Shown: positions 1-6,335 of the stretch, piece after piece
How positions within the stretch are numbered: position 1 is the stretch's first letter
How the letters are laid out: each line of letters opens with the position of its first letter
IMG/VR virus record: IMGVR_UViG_3300045988_011450
Coordinates: 1-6,335 of that record
Reading direction: 5' to 3' (one strand)
Length of the DNA stretch: 6,335 nucleotides
Origin: a virus
Position numbers and translations under genes: made by a program
Notes under the pieces: generated by a model
The model's database searches: none
The model's input: only the letters and a program-made list of their open reading frames with translations
What the model was told of the DNA's origin: nothing

Positions 1-55
1 TCGGAGCTGAATTTATGGCAGGTATTCGCCAAGGTGGTATTAATGGAGCTCCTGG
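1..55. repeat. Terminal direct repeat, copy 1 (circular-genome overlap)
   Basis: The 55 nt tcggagctgaatttatggcaggtattcgccaaggtggtattaatggagctcctgg are identical at 1-55 and 6281-6335. The capsid reading frame is continuous across the junction. Confidence 0.97.
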
Positions 56-1019
56 TAATGGTCAAACCGCTACTGCTTACCCAAGCGGCAATTTAGATGG
101 CGGTTCTCCTTATTTTTATGCTAAAGGTACATCGAAATCTCCTGTTGGTTCGGTTGCTCTTCCTGCCTATATTTCAGGTTCTGATTTGACTTCCTCTCTT
201 TCGGGTACGTTAGAAGCTCAGTTCTCTGTTCTTCAACTTCGTGCAGCCGAAGCTATGCAGAAATGGAAAGAGATTGCTTTGGCTAATGGTCAAAACTATG
301 CTGCTCAGGTCAAGGCACATTTTGGTGTAAGTGTTAATCCTTTGCAGGCACATCGCTCTACTCGTATTTGCGGTTTTGATGGTTCTATTGATATTTCTGC
401 TGTCGAGAACACAAATCTTACTTCTGATGAGGCAATTATCCGTGGTAAAGGTTTAGGCGGTCAACGTGTGAATAATCCTGAAACGTTTACTTGTGATGAA
501 CATGGTATTTTAATGTGTATTTATCATGCTACACCGCTTTTGGATTATGTCCCTTCGGGTCCTGATTTGCAACTTCTTTCTACTGTTGACGGCGCTTCTT
601 GGCCTGTTCCTGAGTTTGATTCTTTAGGCTTGGAGTCTTTGCCTTTTTTACCTTTGATTAATGTTAAGGAGATTAGCCCTGTTCTTCCGAATAAGTTTAT
701 CGGTTATGTTCCTCGTTATATCAGTTGGAAAACTTCTACTGATGTCGTCCGAGGTGCATTTACGGATACCTTACGTTCATGGGTTGCACCTGTCAATAAA
801 GAGTATTTGATGAAGTTTACTCAGATTCCTGATAATGTTTCTCCTTCTGAAGGTGGTTATAACTTTTCGTATAGTTGGTTTAAAATCAATCCTTCGGTTG
901 TTAATCCTATTTTTGGTGTTGCTGCTGGTGATGACTGGAATTCTGACCAATTACTTTGTAATTGCCAGTTTGATGTGAAAGTTGCTCGTAATCTTTCGTA
1001 TGACGGTATGCCTTATTGA
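1..1019 (+). CDS. VP1: Major capsid protein VP1, C-terminal part (wraps from 6280; codons start at positions divisible by 3; stop TGA 1017-1019)
   Basis: Track ORF 15..1019 is in the same frame as the 5413 ORF once 6281 is equated with 1. 868 nt (5413-6280) plus 1019 nt gives 1887 nt, i.e. 628 codons plus stop. Codons are strongly T-ending. Confidence 0.95.
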   Translation, partial: GAEFMAGIRQGGINGAPGNGQTATAYPSGNLDGGSPYFYAKGTSKSPVGSVALPAYISGSDLTSSLSGTLEAQFSVLQLRAAEAMQKWKEIALANGQNYAAQVKAHFGVSVNPLQAHRSTRICGFDGSIDISAVENTNLTSDEAIIRGKGLGGQRVNNPETFTCDEHGILMCIYHATPLLDYVPSGPDLQLLSTVDGASWPVPEFDSLGLESLPFLPLINVKEISPVLPNKFIGYVPRYISWKTSTDVVRGAFTDTLRSWVAPVNKEYLMKFTQIPDNVSPSEGGYNFSYSWFKINPSVVNPIFGVAAGDDWNSDQLLCNCQFDVKVARNLSYDGMPY

Positions 1020-1041
1020 TTTATTTAAAAATTTTACTATT

Positions 1042-1524
1042 ATGTCTAAATTTGGTTTTTCTCGTTATAGTTTGAATGTTGATAATCAGCTTCATTCTAA
1101 TACAGTTGTTTGTTGTTCTGATGCGTCTGTTGCGTTGGCTGGTGTATTACCTGAGATTTCGCCTGTTGAAGATTTTCTCTTTAATCATAATGTAGATGGT
1201 ACAGTTACTTTTGTAAGTGATTATGGTGTTCTTGCTGGACAGGCTGCAATTGATCAGATGAATCCGACTCAGTTGCGTCGTTATCTGAATGGTTTACGTC
1301 CTTCTTCATCTCCTTATACTAATCATTATGATGATGATTTCCTTTTGGAATATTGTAAGGATAGAAATATCCAGTCTTACACTGAAATGCAAGCTTGGCT
1401 TGATCATTTGATTTCAGAGGGTCAATCTATTGAGAGTGATGTTGCTGCTTATCAGGCTGCTAAGTTGGCAGAGCAACAAAAGTCTGCTGATCCTGCAAAT
1501 AATGCCCAATCTTCTACGGAATGA
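1042..1524 (+). CDS. Hypothetical protein, 160 aa (position suggests a scaffolding or other morphogenesis role; not recognisable by motif)
   Basis: This is the track ORF 982..1524. I prefer the ATG at 1042 (MSKFGFSRYS...) because it lies 22 nt after the capsid stop instead of inside the capsid gene. Codon bias is strongly T-ending. Its stop overlaps the VP2 start (ATGA at 1521-1524). Confidence 0.7.
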   Translation: MSKFGFSRYSLNVDNQLHSNTVVCCSDASVALAGVLPEISPVEDFLFNHNVDGTVTFVSDYGVLAGQAAIDQMNPTQLRRYLNGLRPSSSPYTNHYDDDFLLEYCKDRNIQSYTEMQAWLDHLISEGQSIESDVAAYQAAKLAEQQKSADPANNAQSSTE

Positions 1525-2618
1525 TAGGTGCGGCTATCGGTGCCGCTGGTTCACTTGCCAGCGGTGTCGTTAATGCTATTGGCAATAATCGTCAAGGTTC
1601 TAAGAATAGAAAACATCAACTTGAAATGCAGCGGATTCAGAACGAATGGGCAAGTGCTGAGTCTCAGAAATCACGTGATTTTGCTAAGTCAATGTTTGAT
1701 GCTTCTAATGAATGGAATTCGGCTAAAAATCAGCGTGCACGTTTAGAGGAAGCTGGTTTAAATCCTTATTTGATGATGAATGGTGGTTCAGCTGGTATGG
1801 CTCAGTCTACATCTGCAACTGCTACTGGTGGTTCTTCTGGTTCTGGTGGTTCACCTTATCAATACACACCTACCAATATGGTTGGTGATGTTGCTTCTTT
1901 TGCTGGTGCTATGAAGTCTCTTTCTGACGCTCGTAAGTCTGGCACAGAAGCTGATTTGTTGGGTAAGTATGGTGATTCTGATTATTCTTCTCGTATTGCT
2001 AACACAGAGGCTGATACTTATTTTAAACAGCGTCAATCTGATGTTGCTACTGCACAAAAAGCTAATTTGCTTTTGTCTGCCGAAGCTCAGCAAGTTATGA
2101 ATATGTATCTTCCGCAGGAAAAACAGATAGCTCTTTCTACACTTGGTGCTCAGTACTGGAATATGATTAGAGATGGCTCTATCAAAGAAGAACAAGCAAA
2201 AAATCTTCTTGCTACTCGTTTGGAGATTGAAGCCCGTACAGCTGGCCAACATATTTCTAATAAGGTTGCTCGTTCAACTGCTGATAGTATTATTGACGCT
2301 ACTAATACTGCTAAGATGAATGAAGCTGCTTATAATAGAGGTTATTCTCAATTTTCTAATGATGTTGGTTATCGTACAGGCAAAATGGACCGTTGGTCTC
2401 AGGATCCTGTCAAAGCTCGTTGGGATAGAGGTATAAATAATGCTGGTAAGTTTATCGACGGACTTTCTAATATTGTCGGTTCTGTTACTAAGTTTGGTTT
2501 TTTAAGAAATGCTAACAAGTCGTTAAAAGAGTCTAAGCGTCAATTTGACCGCGGTACGGTTGATATTTTTGATGATAATCGCGGTTATTCTTGGACTCGT
2601 CAACATCGTGGTCGTTAG
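1521..2618 (+). CDS. VP2: Minor capsid / DNA pilot protein VP2 (H-like)
   Basis: 365 aa. The N-terminus is a small-residue hydrophobic segment (MIGAAIGAAGSLASGVVNAIG). It is followed by NSAKNQRARLEEAGLNPYLMM, with AGLNP at 1752-1766, the motif shared by microvirus VP2 pilot proteins. A Gly/Ser-rich linker and a long predicted helical region follow. The position after VP1 fits. Confidence 0.87.
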   Translation: MIGAAIGAAGSLASGVVNAIGNNRQGSKNRKHQLEMQRIQNEWASAESQKSRDFAKSMFDASNEWNSAKNQRARLEEAGLNPYLMMNGGSAGMAQSTSATATGGSSGSGGSPYQYTPTNMVGDVASFAGAMKSLSDARKSGTEADLLGKYGDSDYSSRIANTEADTYFKQRQSDVATAQKANLLLSAEAQQVMNMYLPQEKQIALSTLGAQYWNMIRDGSIKEEQAKNLLATRLEIEARTAGQHISNKVARSTADSIIDATNTAKMNEAAYNRGYSQFSNDVGYRTGKMDRWSQDPVKARWDRGINNAGKFIDGLSNIVGSVTKFGFLRNANKSLKESKRQFDRGTVDIFDDNRGYSWTRQHRGR

Positions 2619-2642
2619 TTGTCTTTTGTTTTTACTCCTTTT

Positions 2643-2674
2643 AAGGGATTGGCTTTAATTAGTCAGTCCCTTTT
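2643..2674 (+). terminator. Hairpin plus short T run 25 nt after the VP2 stop (candidate intrinsic terminator or ssDNA hairpin)
   Basis: AAGGGATTGGCT (2643-2654) pairs with AGTCAGTCCCTT (2661-2672) over 12 positions, two of them G-T/U wobbles. The loop is TTAATT, and TT follows at 2673-2674. The T tract is short, so terminator function is uncertain. Confidence 0.35.
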
Positions 2675-2865
2675 CCGTATGGCCCTTCTGCTTCACTACA
2701 TTTCTTGTCCCTTCTATCCGTCCAGCCAGCTGGGGGGGCCCTCTGGGGGGAGCAAGGCTCCCTAAATCTCTATGACGAGACGGGAGTCGAGCATGAAAAA
2801 AACGTCGGCCGTCCACGGGCCGCAGCCGTGGCCCTCGGAGAGTCTTAGCGAAGCGTTGTTCTGCA
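2675..2865 (+). other. GC-rich structured noncoding island (candidate ssDNA origin structure or ncRNA; family unknown)
   Basis: Hand count gives 79 G+C in the 120 nt at 2721-2840 (66%), against visibly AT/T-rich coding flanks. It contains G7 (2732-2738) and G6 (2745-2750). Hairpins are GGGAGC-aag-GCTCCC (2748-2762) and CCACGG-gccgcag-CCGTGG (2813-2831). ORFs here lack the genome's T-ending codon bias. Confidence 0.55.
2848..2854 (+). other. GCGAAGC mini-hairpin heptamer, copy 1
   Basis: Exact GCGAAGC read at 2848-2854 in the packaged-sense strand. Confidence 0.5.
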
Positions 2866-2884
2866 TAGTTTATAAATTTTACTG

Positions 2885-2909
2885 GTACGAAGTTCTCCGA
2901 CTTTCGTGC
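2885..2909 (+). other. Stem-loop (9 bp with one bulge, loop TCTCCG)
   Basis: GTACGAAGT (2885-2893) pairs with ACTTTCGTGC (2900-2909). T2902 is bulged and there is one G-T wobble. Confidence 0.45.
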
Positions 2910-2914
2910 GAAGC
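2908..2914 (+). other. GCGAAGC mini-hairpin heptamer, copy 2
   Basis: Exact GCGAAGC at 2908-2914, 60 nt after copy 1. It overlaps the base of the 2885-2909 stem. Confidence 0.5.
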
Positions 2915-2915
2915 A

Positions 2916-2941
2916 AATCGGATTAATTGTTATTTCCGATT
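2916..2941 (+). promoter_or_regulatory. Perfect 7-bp stem with 12-nt AT-rich loop, 87 nt upstream of the Rep gene (candidate origin hairpin)
   Basis: AATCGGA (2916-2922) pairs perfectly with TCCGATT (2935-2941). The loop is TTAATTGTTATT. Confidence 0.4.
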
Positions 2942-3015
2942 CAAACACCCTTGTTCACGATTGGCGAAAGTCACATGACTATATTAAAGGTATTGCGTAA
3001 TAAAAAAAAAGTTTT

Positions 3016-3023
3016 TATGTTTG
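3016..3023 (+). promoter_or_regulatory. Bacteroides-type -7 promoter motif TAnnTTTG (TATGTTTG) upstream of VP4
   Basis: TATGTTTG lies 4 nt before the VP4 ATG. A partial -33-like ATTG sits at 2992-2995, giving a 20-nt spacer. An A9 tract (3002-3010) lies between them. The motif is so close to the ATG that the transcript would be nearly leaderless, so this call is tentative. Confidence 0.25.
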
Positions 3024-3027
3024 CAGC

Positions 3028-4647
3028 ATGCTAAACGAAAGAAGTAAAACATATGGTTCCTGTGCTCACCCTCGTATAATTAAGAATAAATATACAGGTG
3101 ACCCTGTTTATGTTCCTTGCGGTTCTTGTGAGTTTTGTATTCACAACCGTTCTGTTAAATCGGAGCTTAAATGCAACGTTCAACTTGCTTCTTCTAAGTA
3201 TTGTGAATTTGTTACGCTTACTTATTCTACTGAGTATTTGCCGGTAGGTAAATTTTATCAAGGTTCTCGTGGTGAGGTTCGTTTTCGGTCGTTATCTCGT
3301 GATTTTGTTTATTCATATAAGACTGTTCAAGGTTATAACCGTAATATATCGTTTAATGATGAAGTTTTTGATTTTGATACTCAGTTGTCTTGGGAGGCTG
3401 CACAATTATTGCAGAAAAAGACGCATTTACATTATACTGCTTTTCCTGATGGTCGGCGTGTTTATAATAGACCTTATATGGAAAATTTTATCGGTTATCT
3501 TAACTACCGTGATATACAGCTTTTTCTGAAACGTTTAAATCAAAATATAAGGAGTATTACAAATGAAAAGATTTACTACTACGTTACTGGCGAGTATGGA
3601 CCAACGACTTTCCGCCCGCATTTCCATCTCTTATTTTTCTTCGACTCGGAAAAGCTCCGACAAAGTTTTAGACAGTTTGTTTCTAAGAGCTGGCGATTTG
3701 GTGATTCAGATACGCAACATGTCTGGTCGTCCGCTTCATGCTACGTTGCGGGATATGTCAATAGTATTGCGTGCCTTCCCGACTTTTTTAAGAATAGTAG
3801 GCATATTAAGCCGTTCGGGCGCTTTTCTGTCCATTTTGCGCAATCCGCTTTTGATGAAGTGTTTAAACCGCAAGAAGATGAAGAAATATTCTCTTTATTC
3901 TATGATGGTCGAGTCCTTGACCTTAATGGAAAGCCTACGCTTGTTAAACCTACAAGGTCGCATATCAATAGATTATACCCCCGACTTAATAAGTCTAAGC
4001 ATGCGTCTGTGGTTGATGATATACGAGTTGCAACAACTGTATCAAAACTCCCACAAGTCCTTGCAAAATTCGGCTTTATTGATGAGGTAAGTTCTTTTGA
4101 GTTTTCAAAGCGTGTTTATTATTTGATTCGTCGGTATTTGGAAGTTGATCATTGCTTGGATTCTGCGCCTGAGGAACTTCGTATAATTTATAATGCTTGT
4201 CGCCTTTCGTTGTATATCAACTTTTCGGATGAAAGCGGTTGCTCTGCTATTTATCGTTTGTTGCTTCAGTATCGTAACTTAGTCGATAATTGGATTACTG
4301 CTCCTGCTGGTTCTGTTGCCTTTACTGGTCAATTACGTAAAGCTGTGAGGTCTATTCATTCTTTCTATGATTATTGTTCTCGACGCTCTTTGCATGATCA
4401 GCTTGTTAAGGTTGAAAAGTGGTCTAATGATTCTTATGTACGTGATAATTTGTCAATATATTATTTTTACCCGTTGACTGATGTTGATATAATGAAGAAA
4501 TCTTTTTCAGAGATAGTGTTTGGTAGCTCTGTTCTTCGAGCCAGCTATGCAGATTATGCAGCGGATAATCGTGAACGTATCAAACATAAAGCTCTGAATG
4601 ATAAGAATTCTTTGTTGATTGCAGAAGTTGACAAAAAACCTGTTTAA
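3028..4647 (+). CDS. VP4: Replication initiation protein VP4 (HUH rolling-circle endonuclease, phiX174 gpA-like)
   Basis: 539 aa. RCR motif I is FVTLTY (3208-3225). The HUH motif is HFH within RPHFHLLFFF (3619-3627). The two-tyrosine motif YVAGY within CYVAGYVNS (3742-3756) resembles my recollection of phiX174 gpA YVAKYVNK. The N-terminus has a Cys/His cluster, CAH...PCGSCEFCIH. Confidence 0.94.
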   Translation: MLNERSKTYGSCAHPRIIKNKYTGDPVYVPCGSCEFCIHNRSVKSELKCNVQLASSKYCEFVTLTYSTEYLPVGKFYQGSRGEVRFRSLSRDFVYSYKTVQGYNRNISFNDEVFDFDTQLSWEAAQLLQKKTHLHYTAFPDGRRVYNRPYMENFIGYLNYRDIQLFLKRLNQNIRSITNEKIYYYVTGEYGPTTFRPHFHLLFFFDSEKLRQSFRQFVSKSWRFGDSDTQHVWSSASCYVAGYVNSIACLPDFFKNSRHIKPFGRFSVHFAQSAFDEVFKPQEDEEIFSLFYDGRVLDLNGKPTLVKPTRSHINRLYPRLNKSKHASVVDDIRVATTVSKLPQVLAKFGFIDEVSSFEFSKRVYYLIRRYLEVDHCLDSAPEELRIIYNACRLSLYINFSDESGCSAIYRLLLQYRNLVDNWITAPAGSVAFTGQLRKAVRSIHSFYDYCSRRSLHDQLVKVEKWSNDSYVRDNLSIYYFYPLTDVDIMKKSFSEIVFGSSVLRASYADYAADNRERIKHKALNDKNSLLIAEVDKKPV

Positions 4648-4654
4648 TATAAGT

Positions 4655-4798
4655 ATGAAAGATTATTATTATGCTATTCTTTATTTTGGTGAGGATTCTG
4701 TGAAGGTTGTTATGACCCTTGATCAGATTGATTCTGTTCTTAAAACAGGGCATACTGTTGAAATTCTTGAGCGTGTTCATCTTTTAATTACTGATTGA
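4655..4798 (+). CDS. Small hypothetical protein, 47 aa (not in the ORF track)
   Basis: My translation is MKDYYYAILYFGEDSVKVVMTLDQIDSVLKTGHTVEILERVHLLITD. 33 of 47 codons end in T, matching the genome's coding bias. It fills the gap exactly, starting 7 nt after the VP4 stop and stopping 1 nt before the next ATG. I recognise no homology. Confidence 0.5.
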   Translation: MKDYYYAILYFGEDSVKVVMTLDQIDSVLKTGHTVEILERVHLLITD

Positions 4799-4799
4799 T

Positions 4800-5204
4800 A
4801 TGTATAAGCCTAAGTATTTTTCTTTGCAAGAATTGATTGATACGTCTGTTACAACTCTTGCTAATAATATTCCAAATTGGGATAGTTTGGAGAACCTTCT
4901 TGTTTTGTGCGAAAAGATTCTTGATCCTTTGCGTGATGCATTTTGCAAACCTTTGTTCGTAAATTCTGGCTATCGTTCTAATTTTGTGAATGAAGCTGTT
5001 GGAGGTGTTTCTACTTCTCAACATAAATTAGGTTGTGCTGCTGATTTATCTGTTCGCTCTGATTGTTCGTTGTCTGAGTTATTTGAGCTTGTGCAGGATT
5101 TACATTTACCTTTTGATCAGCTTATTTATTATAAGAAAAGACGTTTTATTCATGTGTCTTGGTCTCCTACTCCACGGTCTCAGGTGATTGTCCGTAATGA
5201 ATAA
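4800..5204 (+). CDS. Zinc D,D- or L,D-peptidase, Peptidase_M15_3 / M15A-like (putative peptidoglycan hydrolase, endolysin candidate)
   Basis: 134 aa. It has the SGYRS...N..VGG..SQHKLGCAAD pattern, with H-x6-D formed by H75 (5022-5024) and D82 (5043-5045). A distal FIHV histidine, H118, sits at 5151-5153. This is the H-x6-D...H zinc triad layout of VanY/M15 phage peptidases. No signal peptide or TM segment is visible. Confidence 0.85.
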   Translation: MYKPKYFSLQELIDTSVTTLANNIPNWDSLENLLVLCEKILDPLRDAFCKPLFVNSGYRSNFVNEAVGGVSTSQHKLGCAADLSVRSDCSLSELFELVQDLHLPFDQLIYYKKRRFIHVSWSPTPRSQVIVRNE

Positions 5205-5416
5205 TGCTTGATATTCCTTTATCTTTCCCGTCTATTCATAATGATTTGGTAGACGGAATACCTGAAAATTATGTTTCCTATTATAAAAAGTATTTATATG
5301 AAATTGAATTTTTCCGTCTTAAAAAAAGTGATTCTTCTGATTCACGACATTGTGACGTTCCTCTTGTCAAGGAAGAAAAACAATTAGTTATTAATTTTAA
5401 ATTTGATGAAAAATGA
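5204..5416 (+). CDS. Hypothetical protein, 70 aa
   Basis: Its start overlaps the peptidase stop (TAATG) and its stop overlaps the VP1 start (ATGA). 38 of 70 codons end in T. The protein is charged (K/E/D rich) with no TM segment, and I recognise no motif. Confidence 0.5.
   Translation: MLDIPLSFPSIHNDLVDGIPENYVSYYKKYLYEIEFFRLKKSDSSDSRHCDVPLVKEEKQLVINFKFDEK
5398..5405 (+). promoter_or_regulatory. TAnnTTTG motif (TAAATTTG) 7 nt upstream of the VP1 start
   Basis: Read directly. It lies inside the 70-aa ORF. I saw no good -33 TTTG at the expected spacing, so this may be chance in a T-rich genome. Confidence 0.2.
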
Positions 5417-6335
5417 GTAGTTTATTTTCGTATGGAGATATTAAAAATTCTCCCCGTCGTTCTGGTTTCGATTTGTCGAACAAATGTGCGTTTACCGCTA
5501 AGGTAGGTGAGTTGCTTCCTACTTATTGGAAGTTCTGTATGCCTGGTGATAAGTTTAAGATTTCTCAGGAATGGTTTACCCGTACACAGCCAGTAGATAC
5601 TTCTGCTTTTACTCGTATTCGTGAATATTACGAGTGGTTCTTTGTTCCTCTTCATTTGCTTTATCGTAACAGTAACGAGGTGATCATGTCCTTGGAGAAA
5701 CAACCTAACTATGCCGCTTCTTCGTCTTCTTCCATTTCTTTTACAAGAAATTTACCTTTTCTTTCTTTGTCTGACATAAATTCAGCTATTGTTAACGTTG
5801 GTAAATCTACAAAACAAAAGAATTTCTTTGGTTTTAAGCGTGCAGACGGTTTTAAGAAGCTTTCTTCATACCTTGGCTATGGTGAAACTGATCCCTCTGT
5901 TATCGAGGTTGATTCTCGTGTTTCTGCTTTCCCGTTCTACGCTTATCAGAAGATTTATGCTGACTATTACAGAAATTCTCAATGGGAGAAAAATCAGCCT
6001 TGGACGTACAACTGTGACTTCTGGAACGGTGAGTCTGCATCTCCTGTTTCTACCTCGACTGACTTATTCAACACTCACCCTAATGACTCGGTTTTTGAGC
6101 TTCGGTATGCGAATTGGAACAAAGATCTTTGGATGGGCGCTTTACCTAATTCTCAGTTTGGTGATGTTGCTGCTGTTACTATTACCTCTGACCTTTCTAA
6201 ATATAAAGCCTCTGTTGCTGGTCGTGCTAATGTTAAAGGCATGATGCCTGTTGTTTATGGTGACGCTGGCGGCAATTCTGTCGGAGCTGAATTTATGGCA
6301 GGTATTCGCCAAGGTGGTATTAATGGAGCTCCTGG
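5413..6335 (+). CDS. VP1: Major capsid protein VP1 (F-like), N-terminal part; continues at position 1 after removing the 55-nt duplicate
   Basis: The ATG at 5413 overlaps the upstream stop (ATGA). My own translation is open to the window end: MSSLFSYGDIKNSPRRSGFDLSNKCAFTAKVGELLPTYWKFCMPGDKF...FFVPLHLLY...YAYQKIYADYYRN. The RxGFDLS / FTAKxGELLP / PGD / FFVP pattern is the conserved Microviridae capsid N-terminus. This ORF is missing from the ORF track because it has no stop inside the window. Confidence 0.95.
   Translation, partial: MSSLFSYGDIKNSPRRSGFDLSNKCAFTAKVGELLPTYWKFCMPGDKFKISQEWFTRTQPVDTSAFTRIREYYEWFFVPLHLLYRNSNEVIMSLEKQPNYAASSSSSISFTRNLPFLSLSDINSAIVNVGKSTKQKNFFGFKRADGFKKLSSYLGYGETDPSVIEVDSRVSAFPFYAYQKIYADYYRNSQWEKNQPWTYNCDFWNGESASPVSTSTDLFNTHPNDSVFELRYANWNKDLWMGALPNSQFGDVAAVTITSDLSKYKASVAGRANVKGMMPVVYGDAGGNSVGAEFMAGIRQGGINGAP
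6281..6335. repeat. Terminal direct repeat, copy 2 (circular-genome overlap)
   Basis: Exact copy of 1-55. An end overlap of this kind is typical of a circular contig reported linearly. A length of 55 nt would fit an assembler k-mer overlap (inference). Confidence 0.97.

Follow-up and report, generated by a model that had tools for sequence, protein, structure and literature searches.

Among described systems, the closest to the element reported here are the complementary-strand (minus-strand) origins of the microviruses G4, St-1 and alpha3 and the ssiA site of plasmid RSF1010. The link is the DNA mini-hairpin, a family defined as GCGNAGC and GCGNNAGC, which occurs naturally at the site used by primase in the complementary-strand origins of G4, St-1 and alpha3, in RSF1010 ssiA and in the promoters of phage N4; hairpin I of the three phage origins carries GCGAAAGC or GCGTTAGC, and ssiA carries CCGAAGG (PMC13037366). 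In the reekeekee- and roodoodoo-microviruses, conserved and compensated hairpins near Rep have been discussed as possible minus origins, with their function left open (PMC9865509, section 3.8). Here we describe an element at positions 2883-2985 of a 6,335-nt stretch of viral DNA (IMG/VR record IMGVR_UViG_3300045988_011450, positions 1 to 6,335; hereafter the window), which is predicted to fold into a three-way junction in the packaged single strand and which may act as the complementary-strand origin of the phage.

The microviruses associated with Bacteroides rank with the most common DNA viruses in the human gut. We know of no microvirus outside the phiX174/G4 group in which either origin of replication has been located by experiment. 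A literature search found no mapped origin for the gut lineage and no description of the junction in Bacteroides or Alpavirinae-like microviruses, nor is it mentioned in the paper on Bacteroides phage phiHBP1. The first and last 55 nt of the window are identical, and it is therefore a complete circular microvirus genome of ~6280 nt. It is 82.6% identical to phiHBP1 (PV598014), a microvirus cultured on B. fragilis (PMC13064476). A first-pass annotation of the window, made from its letters alone, had proposed a candidate origin region just upstream of the Rep gene, marked by two copies of the heptamer GCGAAGC and a row of local hairpins, and had taken the given strand to be the packaged one. The T-richness of this + strand (36.4% T) and the fact that it carries every gene are compatible with that assignment.

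Results

A predicted three-way junction maintained by compensatory changes

Relatives of the window were gathered through Rep and not through the element, from IMG/VR and metagenome contigs and from contigs encoding Rep homologues, so that conservation of the element could be judged without circularity. By Rep identity they form three groups: clade A (84-88%), clade B (57-60%) and the large clade C (27-43%). Many of these relatives are closely akin, which inflates counts of alignment cells relative to the independent events behind them; the numbers of compensated pairs given below (7, 13 and 9 of 18) are sturdier.

Comparison across this family predicts that 2883-2985 folds in the packaged strand into a Y-shaped junction of three helices: a long-range helix P1 that closes 58 nt, a mini-hairpin, and a second hairpin, P2 (Table 1). 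The 24 distinct sequences from close relatives, aligned with MAFFT, pair in 99.8% of cells and show compensation at 7 of the 18 base pairs, the single unpaired cell being an alignment artefact at a paired insertion. None of 500 shuffles reached the observed value, and sliding the partners out of register left 17-47% paired. All eight P1 pairs form in 24/24 close relatives and two are fully compensated (GC↔CG 13/11, CG↔UA 13/11), with clade B arms reading CACTTTTG and CAAAAGTG. The stem of the mini-hairpin covaries as well (UA↔CG, GC↔CG): TGCGAAGCA of the window becomes CCCGAAGGG, CGCGAAGCG or TGGCGAAGCCA in relatives, and others have a GAAA loop. P2 is 100% paired, with three of its seven pairs compensated and stem variants AACCGGA/TCCGGTT or AATCGCT/AGCGATT.

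A covariance model built from these 24 sequences (R1) detected the full-length element in 52 further clade C contigs, on the + strand only (E 3.5e-11 to 8.3e-5), at loci whose Rep is 27-43% identical. Across the 68 distinct sequences then available, fitted to the model, pairing holds in 96.9% of cells and compensation is seen at 13 of the 18 pairs, including four in P1 and all seven in P2. Independently of the model, 17 clade C sequences outside it were aligned afresh with MAFFT; RNAalifold, applied de novo, recovered the three helices from this alignment, with 9/18 pairs compensated. Both the minimum free energy and the centroid fold of the window sequence as single-stranded DNA reproduce the junction. 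An all-column-pair scan of the element revealed no further helix or pseudoknot, yielding only clade-split correlations without stacked pairs. A pairing of 2835-2841 with 2894-2900 was rejected, being lost in relatives and in competition with P1. BLAST also matches the clade C element in GenBank records of microviruses from the faeces of lemurs and rodents, where no feature is annotated at the site; five complete records from microviruses further removed gave no R1 match.

Table 1. Features of the window, in order along the circle from VP1. Roles of non-coding features are predicted.
Feature	Position	Strand	Description
VP1 capsid gene	5413 across circle junction to 1019	+	Pfam Phage_F
Small open reading frame	1042-1524	+	
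VP2	1521-2618	+	
H1	2643-2676	+	Inverted repeat after VP2 stop; hairpin AAGGGATTGGCT/AGTCAGTCCCTT, loop TTAATT, then TTTT
GC-rich island	2675-2845	+	61% G+C; hairpins e.g. 2748-2753/2757-2762 and 2806-2810/2818-2822
Variable cassette	2838-2878	+	Present or replaced among relatives; holds first GCGAAGC (2848-2854)
5' flank	2883-2898	+	TGGTACGWAGTTCYYN; unpaired; invariant alignment columns; WAGTT retained in clade C
P1, 5' strand	2899-2906	+	GACTTTCG; partner 2965-2972
Mini-hairpin	2907-2915	+	TGC-GAA-GCA (TGCGAAGCA); holds second GCGAAGC (2908-2914); stacks between P1 and P2
P2 hairpin	2916-2941	+	Stem AATCGGA/TCCGATT (2916-2922/2935-2941); 12-nt T-rich loop TTAATTGTTATT (2923-2934)
Joiner	2942-2964	+	CAAAC-N3-CTTGTTCAYGATTRG; single-stranded; family consensus CTYGTYC...GATT.G
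P1, 3' strand	2965-2972	+	CGAAAGTC; takes in the near-copy GCGAAAGT (see text)
3' tail	2973-2985	+	ACAYSACTATATW; conserved; ACA invariant family-wide
Bacteroides-type promoter	2993-3023	+	TTG-N20-TATGTTTG; ends 4 nt before Rep ATG (3028)
Rep	3028-4647	+	539 aa; PF23343 (REP_ORF2-G2P); HUH motif HFH, two-tyrosine motif YVAGYVNS
M15 peptidase	4800-5204	+	Peptidase_M15_3, E = 9e-16; between Rep and capsid gene
Two further small open reading frames		+	

The local hairpins proposed in the first-pass annotation fared unevenly. The heptamer GCGAAGC does occur exactly twice when both strands are counted, each time on the + strand. Over the whole genome this is unremarkable (2 found, 0.52 expected, and at least 2 in 23 of 200 shuffles), while on the + strand of the 409-nt spacer that separates VP2 from Rep 0.013 copies are expected (Poisson P(>=2) ~9e-5, post hoc). 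The second copy covaries and is conserved within the fold, whereas the first sits in a variable cassette. P2 corresponds to the perfect 7-bp stem and 12-nt loop of that annotation, which is present, conserved and covarying. A supposed near-copy of the heptamer, GCGAAAGT, is indeed found at 2964-2971; it forms no mini-hairpin, however, and belongs instead to the 3' strand of P1. Two proposals did not survive comparison: neither the bulged hairpin at 2885-2909 nor the inverted repeat AGTCAcaTGACT at 2969-2980, though both are present in the window, shows covariation, and for both 219 of 500 shuffles match the observed score and about half of the relatives are mismatched. What had been seen as a row of local hairpins thus contains real helices, arranged in a three-way junction with the long-range P1, and conservation in relatives extends to the second heptamer site and P2 but not to the first heptamer, the bulged hairpin or the palindrome.

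The element is non-coding and more conserved than the neighbouring genes

The junction lies in the right half of the sole non-coding region of the genome (2619-3027). Segment 2883-2985 is 96% identical to phiHBP1 and 84.5% identical to the clade B genome L006; the corresponding nucleotide identities are 88% and 64% for the Rep gene and 89% and 71% for VP2, and the element is therefore more conserved than either gene. Coding capacity does not explain this. Relatives differ across the spacer by 1-2 nt indels that break every reading frame, and the candidate reading frames (2772-2978, antisense 2655-2948 and the coding sequence annotated in phiHBP1) were rejected on these indels and on having no Pfam match. 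The phiHBP1 GenBank record places a 136-aa hypothetical protein over the spacer (L001 3440-3850; record 2326-2736); given the same frame-breaking indels, this coding sequence is unsupported and probably spurious. No tRNA or tmRNA was found in the window, and no Rfam family matched the whole window on either strand at E <= 1.

The conserved hairpin follows the rules of a DNA mini-hairpin family

At the conserved mini-hairpin site, 62 of the 68 distinct sequences have a C-G(N)NA-G loop, and the loop begins with G in 66. Triloops are GAA (18 sequences), GTA (10) and GGA (2), and tetraloops GGTA (12), GATA (11), GAAA (8) and GCTA (1); the remainder are GAAT, GAAC or GTAT (4) and other loops (2). 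Two-thirds of the tetraloops (24/36) are thus GNTA, which is no RNA GNRA loop but falls within the DNA mini-hairpin family GCGNNAGC. Loops are closed by C-G, on stems that are GC..GC in most cases, CC..GG in six and AC..GT in one, while CG..CG and GG..CC stems were never observed at the site. In published work, the stable form requires GC..GC or CC..GG closing pairs, and not CG..CG or GG..CC; DNA of sequence GCGAAGC or GCGAAAGC melts at 76.5 C, as against 39 C for r(GCGAAAGC), and the DNA mini-hairpins are nuclease-resistant and bind single-strand-binding protein (SSB) poorly (PMC13037366). Judged by loop and stem, the conserved hairpin belongs to this family, described by Hirao and colleagues, and since its variants obey the published stability rules, selection on the DNA hairpin itself can be argued. 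The first-pass annotation had linked the motif to the phiX174 origin region. The type of motif was correctly recognised, although its microvirus precedent is the minus origin of G4, St-1 and alpha3 (PMC13037366).

The same variants bear on the strand. Read on the opposite strand, the loops would be TN(N)C, and P1 and P2 of clade C relatives include T.G wobbles. Together, the G(N)NA identity of the loop, the GNTA tetraloops, the T.G wobbles and the T-richness of the strand favour a fold that acts as DNA of the + strand. At L097 1395-1440 and other loci of clade C, another C-G(N)NA-G hairpin lies ~100 nt before Rep, past a TAnnTTTG box, in the forms GCGCGGAGCGC, GCGCGGTAGCGC and the compensated GCGTGGAACGC.

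The junction appears to lie between transcription units

Two predicted signals flank the element (Table 1). On the left, H1 is the putative terminator of the late VP1-VP2 transcript and would form the left border of an untranscribed gap. It holds T.G and G.T wobbles and hence folds on the + strand only. Clades B and C have a hairpin in the same place, with a different stem sequence and a GTGAT loop; fixed-column pairing of H1 is just 71%, its registers differing between clades, and a terminator scan of the window did not call it. On the right, a promoter of the form TTG/TTTG-N18-22-TAnnTTTG starts 4-73 nt 3' of the element in 64/69 relatives, in the strict TTTG form in 41, at an offset that is constant within each clade although the spacers vary. 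The TAnnTTTG box alone is not rare in the window (11 against 7.3 expected). In those 64 relatives the motif abuts the gene that follows or lies ahead of it. The position of the promoter suggests that the Rep mRNA is leaderless or near-leaderless. With H1 and its T-run on one side and the promoter on the other, the junction would therefore occupy a gap outside the transcription units.

This arrangement bears on whether the fold might act in RNA, either at the 3' end of the late VP1-VP2 transcript, as a stabiliser or compound terminator, or as an upstream regulatory RNA for Rep. The + strand has the sense of the mRNA and covariation is blind to the difference between RNA and DNA; the T-run of H1 is just 4 nt long and may terminate poorly, in which case read-through transcripts would include the element, and the GAAA loops of eight sequences are good RNA GNRA loops. 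RNA does not favour GNA triloops or GNTA tetraloops, however, and most of the loops are of these two kinds; an RNA mini-hairpin is also much less stable than its DNA counterpart (PMC13037366). Moreover, no T-run follows the element, which comes after the candidate terminator and, in the 64/69 relatives above, before the promoter, and Rfam provides no match. We consider a role in RNA very unlikely.

Flanking sequences and other coding features

The GC-rich island to the left of the element is nearly invariant in clades A and B and 82% identical to that of L006. Clade C (L097) lacks it, and the 182 nt available upstream of the element in the clade A contig L018 show no sign of it; it thus stands outside the conserved junction. 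Sub-blocks of the island are shared patchwise across clades, in the manner of an exchangeable cassette. A host-derived attachment site was considered for the island and rejected: its invariant core has two unrelated matches in 185,579 species genomes, none of them in Bacteroidota. On the minus strand, window 2796-2822 reads as a terminator-like hairpin, CGGCCCGTGGACGGCCG, followed by T7. A minus-strand terminator at 2822-2796 was likewise set aside, as the T.G wobbles found there in six relatives fit folding of the + strand.

The variable cassette between the island and the junction (~20-40 nt) is present in the window, in phiHBP1, in several clade A genomes and in two clade B genomes, one of which, L033, has GCGGAGC in place of the heptamer; elsewhere it is swapped for an unrelated, shorter sequence. 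The first GCGAAGC is accordingly an optional extra mini-hairpin in a recombining cassette, outside the conserved core.

Among the genes, a Peptidase_M15_3 protein is also found in clade B and in L012. A 175-codon reading frame lies within Rep in the +1 frame (window 3563-4090), and L002, L003, L004 and L005 have it open at the corresponding position; it could be an overlapping gene or a frame held open by codon bias. The Rep frame is broken into two reading frames in IMG/VR contigs L004 (1193-2826) and L005 (1974-3607), reflecting either assembly errors or defective genomes.

Discussion

We propose that the junction at 2883-2985 is the complementary-strand origin of this phage and acts in single-stranded DNA. 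We give this reading a probability of roughly 0.45, since the element has no homology to any proven origin. The family displays a covarying fold that is specific to one strand, sits outside the transcription units and is spread over gut microviruses with highly divergent Reps. As P1 closes 58 nt, the fold can form only where the whole region is single-stranded. The best fit to an element that needs a single-stranded template, lies outside transcripts, contains a stable hairpin specific to DNA and survives the divergence of Rep is a minus origin, and if conserved machinery of the host reads the signal, its retention down to 27% Rep identity is what one would expect. The priming role, the enzyme and the start site are inferred from the G4, St-1 and alpha3 origins and RSF1010 ssiA: on that analogy, the viral DNA would be coated by the SSB of the host after entry, while the junction, and above all its very stable mini-hairpin, would remain folded and free of SSB. 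The fold would then be recognised by a Bacteroides priming enzyme, either DnaG primase or RNA polymerase, which would lay the primer for second-strand synthesis. A host enzyme would be needed for this step, because a Pfam scan of the phage genes revealed no primase.

Several considerations weigh against this proposal. Its function is assigned by analogy alone, and R1 run with filters off finds no match in G4 at E <= 10 and none in phiX174 or M13. The thermodynamic signal of the fold is modest (z = -1.66). Watson-Crick covariation by itself separates neither DNA from RNA nor one strand from the other, so that the case for strand and for DNA is built on the identity of the loop, on a limited set of wobble pairs and on where promoter and terminator are inferred to lie. 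The second hairpin of clade C probably lies in the DNA of a transcribed leader, and the motif would then not be exclusive to untranscribed DNA. Finally, the clade-specific P2 loop would also fit a Rep-specific nick site. No other non-coding stretch of these genomes is an obvious candidate for a plus origin, and the element or part of it might fill that role instead or as well.

This last point leads to the proposal that the junction is instead the plus-strand origin, where Rep would bind, nick in the P2 loop or in the joiner (CTTG/TTC) to start rolling-circle synthesis and, recognising the same fold, close each displaced strand; alternatively, both origins could share a composite element, as in the intergenic region of f1. 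Upstream of Rep in clades A and B stands a hairpin whose T-rich loop has a fixed length (12 nt in 64/68 sequences across the family). Its sequence tracks the Rep clade, as a Rep-specific site would, reading TTAAYTGTWMTY in clades A and B and TKTCRCATCTAR in clade C, and among the unpaired stretches conservation is highest in the CTYGTYC-bearing joiner. Rep itself matches PF23343, REP_ORF2-G2P, a name that covers the inovirus G2P protein, and gpII of f1/M13 nicks within the loop of a 6-bp hairpin. The genome has only one non-coding region, origin words of the phiX type are absent elsewhere in it, and the mosaic alleles of the spacer suggest a recombination hot spot of the kind typical of rolling-circle origins.

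Set against this are the position of the element and the way in which it varies. The first-pass annotation had relied on a stem-loop next to an HUH Rep gene; the element does adjoin Rep in clades A and B, but in clade C, in relatives with Rep identities of 27-30%, it stands ~870 nt and two small open reading frames away, which weakens the argument from adjacency. The P2 stem is kept by compensation and the fold persists across Reps that are 27% identical, yet the sequence of the P2 loop is not conserved across the Rep family. A helix closing 58 nt would be hard to extrude from the double-stranded replicative form, where plus-strand initiation must occur. The proposed resemblance of the loop to the phiX174 nick site amounts to chance, with 13 decamers within two mismatches of ACTTGATATT against 11.8 expected, and the documented contexts of mini-hairpins involve primases and polymerases, not HUH nickases (PMC13037366). 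A plus-strand origin therefore seems unlikely to us. The proposal that the region holds an origin has stood the comparison, in that an origin is the most natural reading of a structured non-coding cis-element, with a minus origin favoured over a Rep nick site.

A combined arrangement appears less probable still, namely a single dual origin of ~100 nt in which the mini-hairpin and P1 recruit a Bacteroides primase straight to the SSB-coated viral DNA, the P2 loop or joiner provides the site of nicking and closure by Rep, and the GC island and cassette act as exchangeable boosters. If it were true, both origins of an abundant human-gut microvirus lineage would be held in one fold, and Bacteroidota would possess a G4-like, PriA-independent route reached with an unrelated fold.

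The single-stranded element might also serve something other than replication, as a contact site for capsid or DNA-pilot proteins in packaging or ejection, a nuclease-resistant or SSB-excluding knot, or a decoy for host defences that sense single-stranded DNA. The specificity of the fold for the packaged strand and its conservation independently of Rep divergence would suit such roles. We know of no microvirus that requires a packaging signal, however, and in phiX174 packaging is coupled to replication. The nuclease resistance and poor SSB binding of mini-hairpins (PMC13037366) would be useful in a knot of this kind, but a single site per genome would protect little, and the sequence points to no protein partner. 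We regard these roles as very improbable indeed.

The element is a precisely bounded candidate, supported by covariation and common to dozens of gut microvirus genomes, and the growth of phiHBP1 in culture on B. fragilis (PMC13064476) makes it directly testable. The DNA mini-hairpin motif is also widened by this family from a few cases in E. coli phages and plasmids to a series of natural variants. In addition, R1 can be used as an annotation marker for the lineage and would avert spurious calls such as the 136-aa coding sequence of phiHBP1.

Comparison with known systems

The Rep of the window shares with phiX174 the HUH and two-tyrosine layout, the latter being YVAGYVNS here and YVAKYVNK in phiX174. 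The viral-strand origin of phiX174, a 30-nt gpA recognition sequence, lies inside gene A, whereas the present element is outside the Rep gene. CAACTTGATATTAATAAC of phiX174 has no match within 3 mismatches, and CTTGATA is conserved nowhere on the coding strand of the relatives. A viral-strand origin or nick site of the phiX174 type was rejected on these grounds, the recognition sequence and a conserved CTTGATA being missing and the decamer likeness being at the level of chance.

The Ff phages (f1, M13) present a like order of parts, with the end of a structural gene, a hairpin and structured origin DNA followed by the promoter and gene of the initiator, and their initiator shares the Pfam family name REP_ORF2-G2P with the Rep described here. 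In the Ff intergenic region a terminator/packaging hairpin comes first, then the minus origin, the plus origin and the Rep gene. Hairpin D of M13, as read from its sequence, is built of a 6-bp stem and an AT-rich loop of 11 nt, which carries the nick. Unlike the junction, the Ff minus origin consists of two hairpins that resemble a promoter and are read by RNA polymerase, and there is no homology between it and the junction. CTTGTTC and CAAAC are shared with the M13 plus origin, in a different order and unalignable, and were dismissed as coincidence. The hairpins of the reekeekee- and roodoodoo-microviruses are likewise different, being simple hairpins in other clades of the Microviridae, as opposed to a three-way junction with a Hirao mini-hairpin.

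Nearer parallels are found among primase-dependent sites. RSF1010 ssiA is a hairpin capped by CCGAAGG, which aids recognition by primase (PMC13037366), and CCGAAGG also occurs at the conserved site in L006, L012 and L101; ssiA differs in being a single 40-nt hairpin served by a plasmid-encoded primase, RepB'. At origins of the G4 type, primase makes the primer on SSB-coated DNA, at a defined trinucleotide 3' of the hairpin. The oric of the Bullavirinae phages G4, St-1 and alpha3, in the F-G intergenic region, consists in G4 of three consecutive hairpins, in place of the three-way junction and long-range helix found here, and the two have no homology in sequence or structure; the host, too, is Bacteroides, unlike that of the G4-type phages. 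G4 nevertheless has a motif of the GCGNNAGC type, with GGACGGCGAAAGCCGCCGTCC followed by CTACTG and the annotated complementary-strand start at 3998. As in these origins, the junction consists of structured, selected, non-coding DNA of the packaged microvirus strand, near gene boundaries, with hairpins that need single-stranded DNA.

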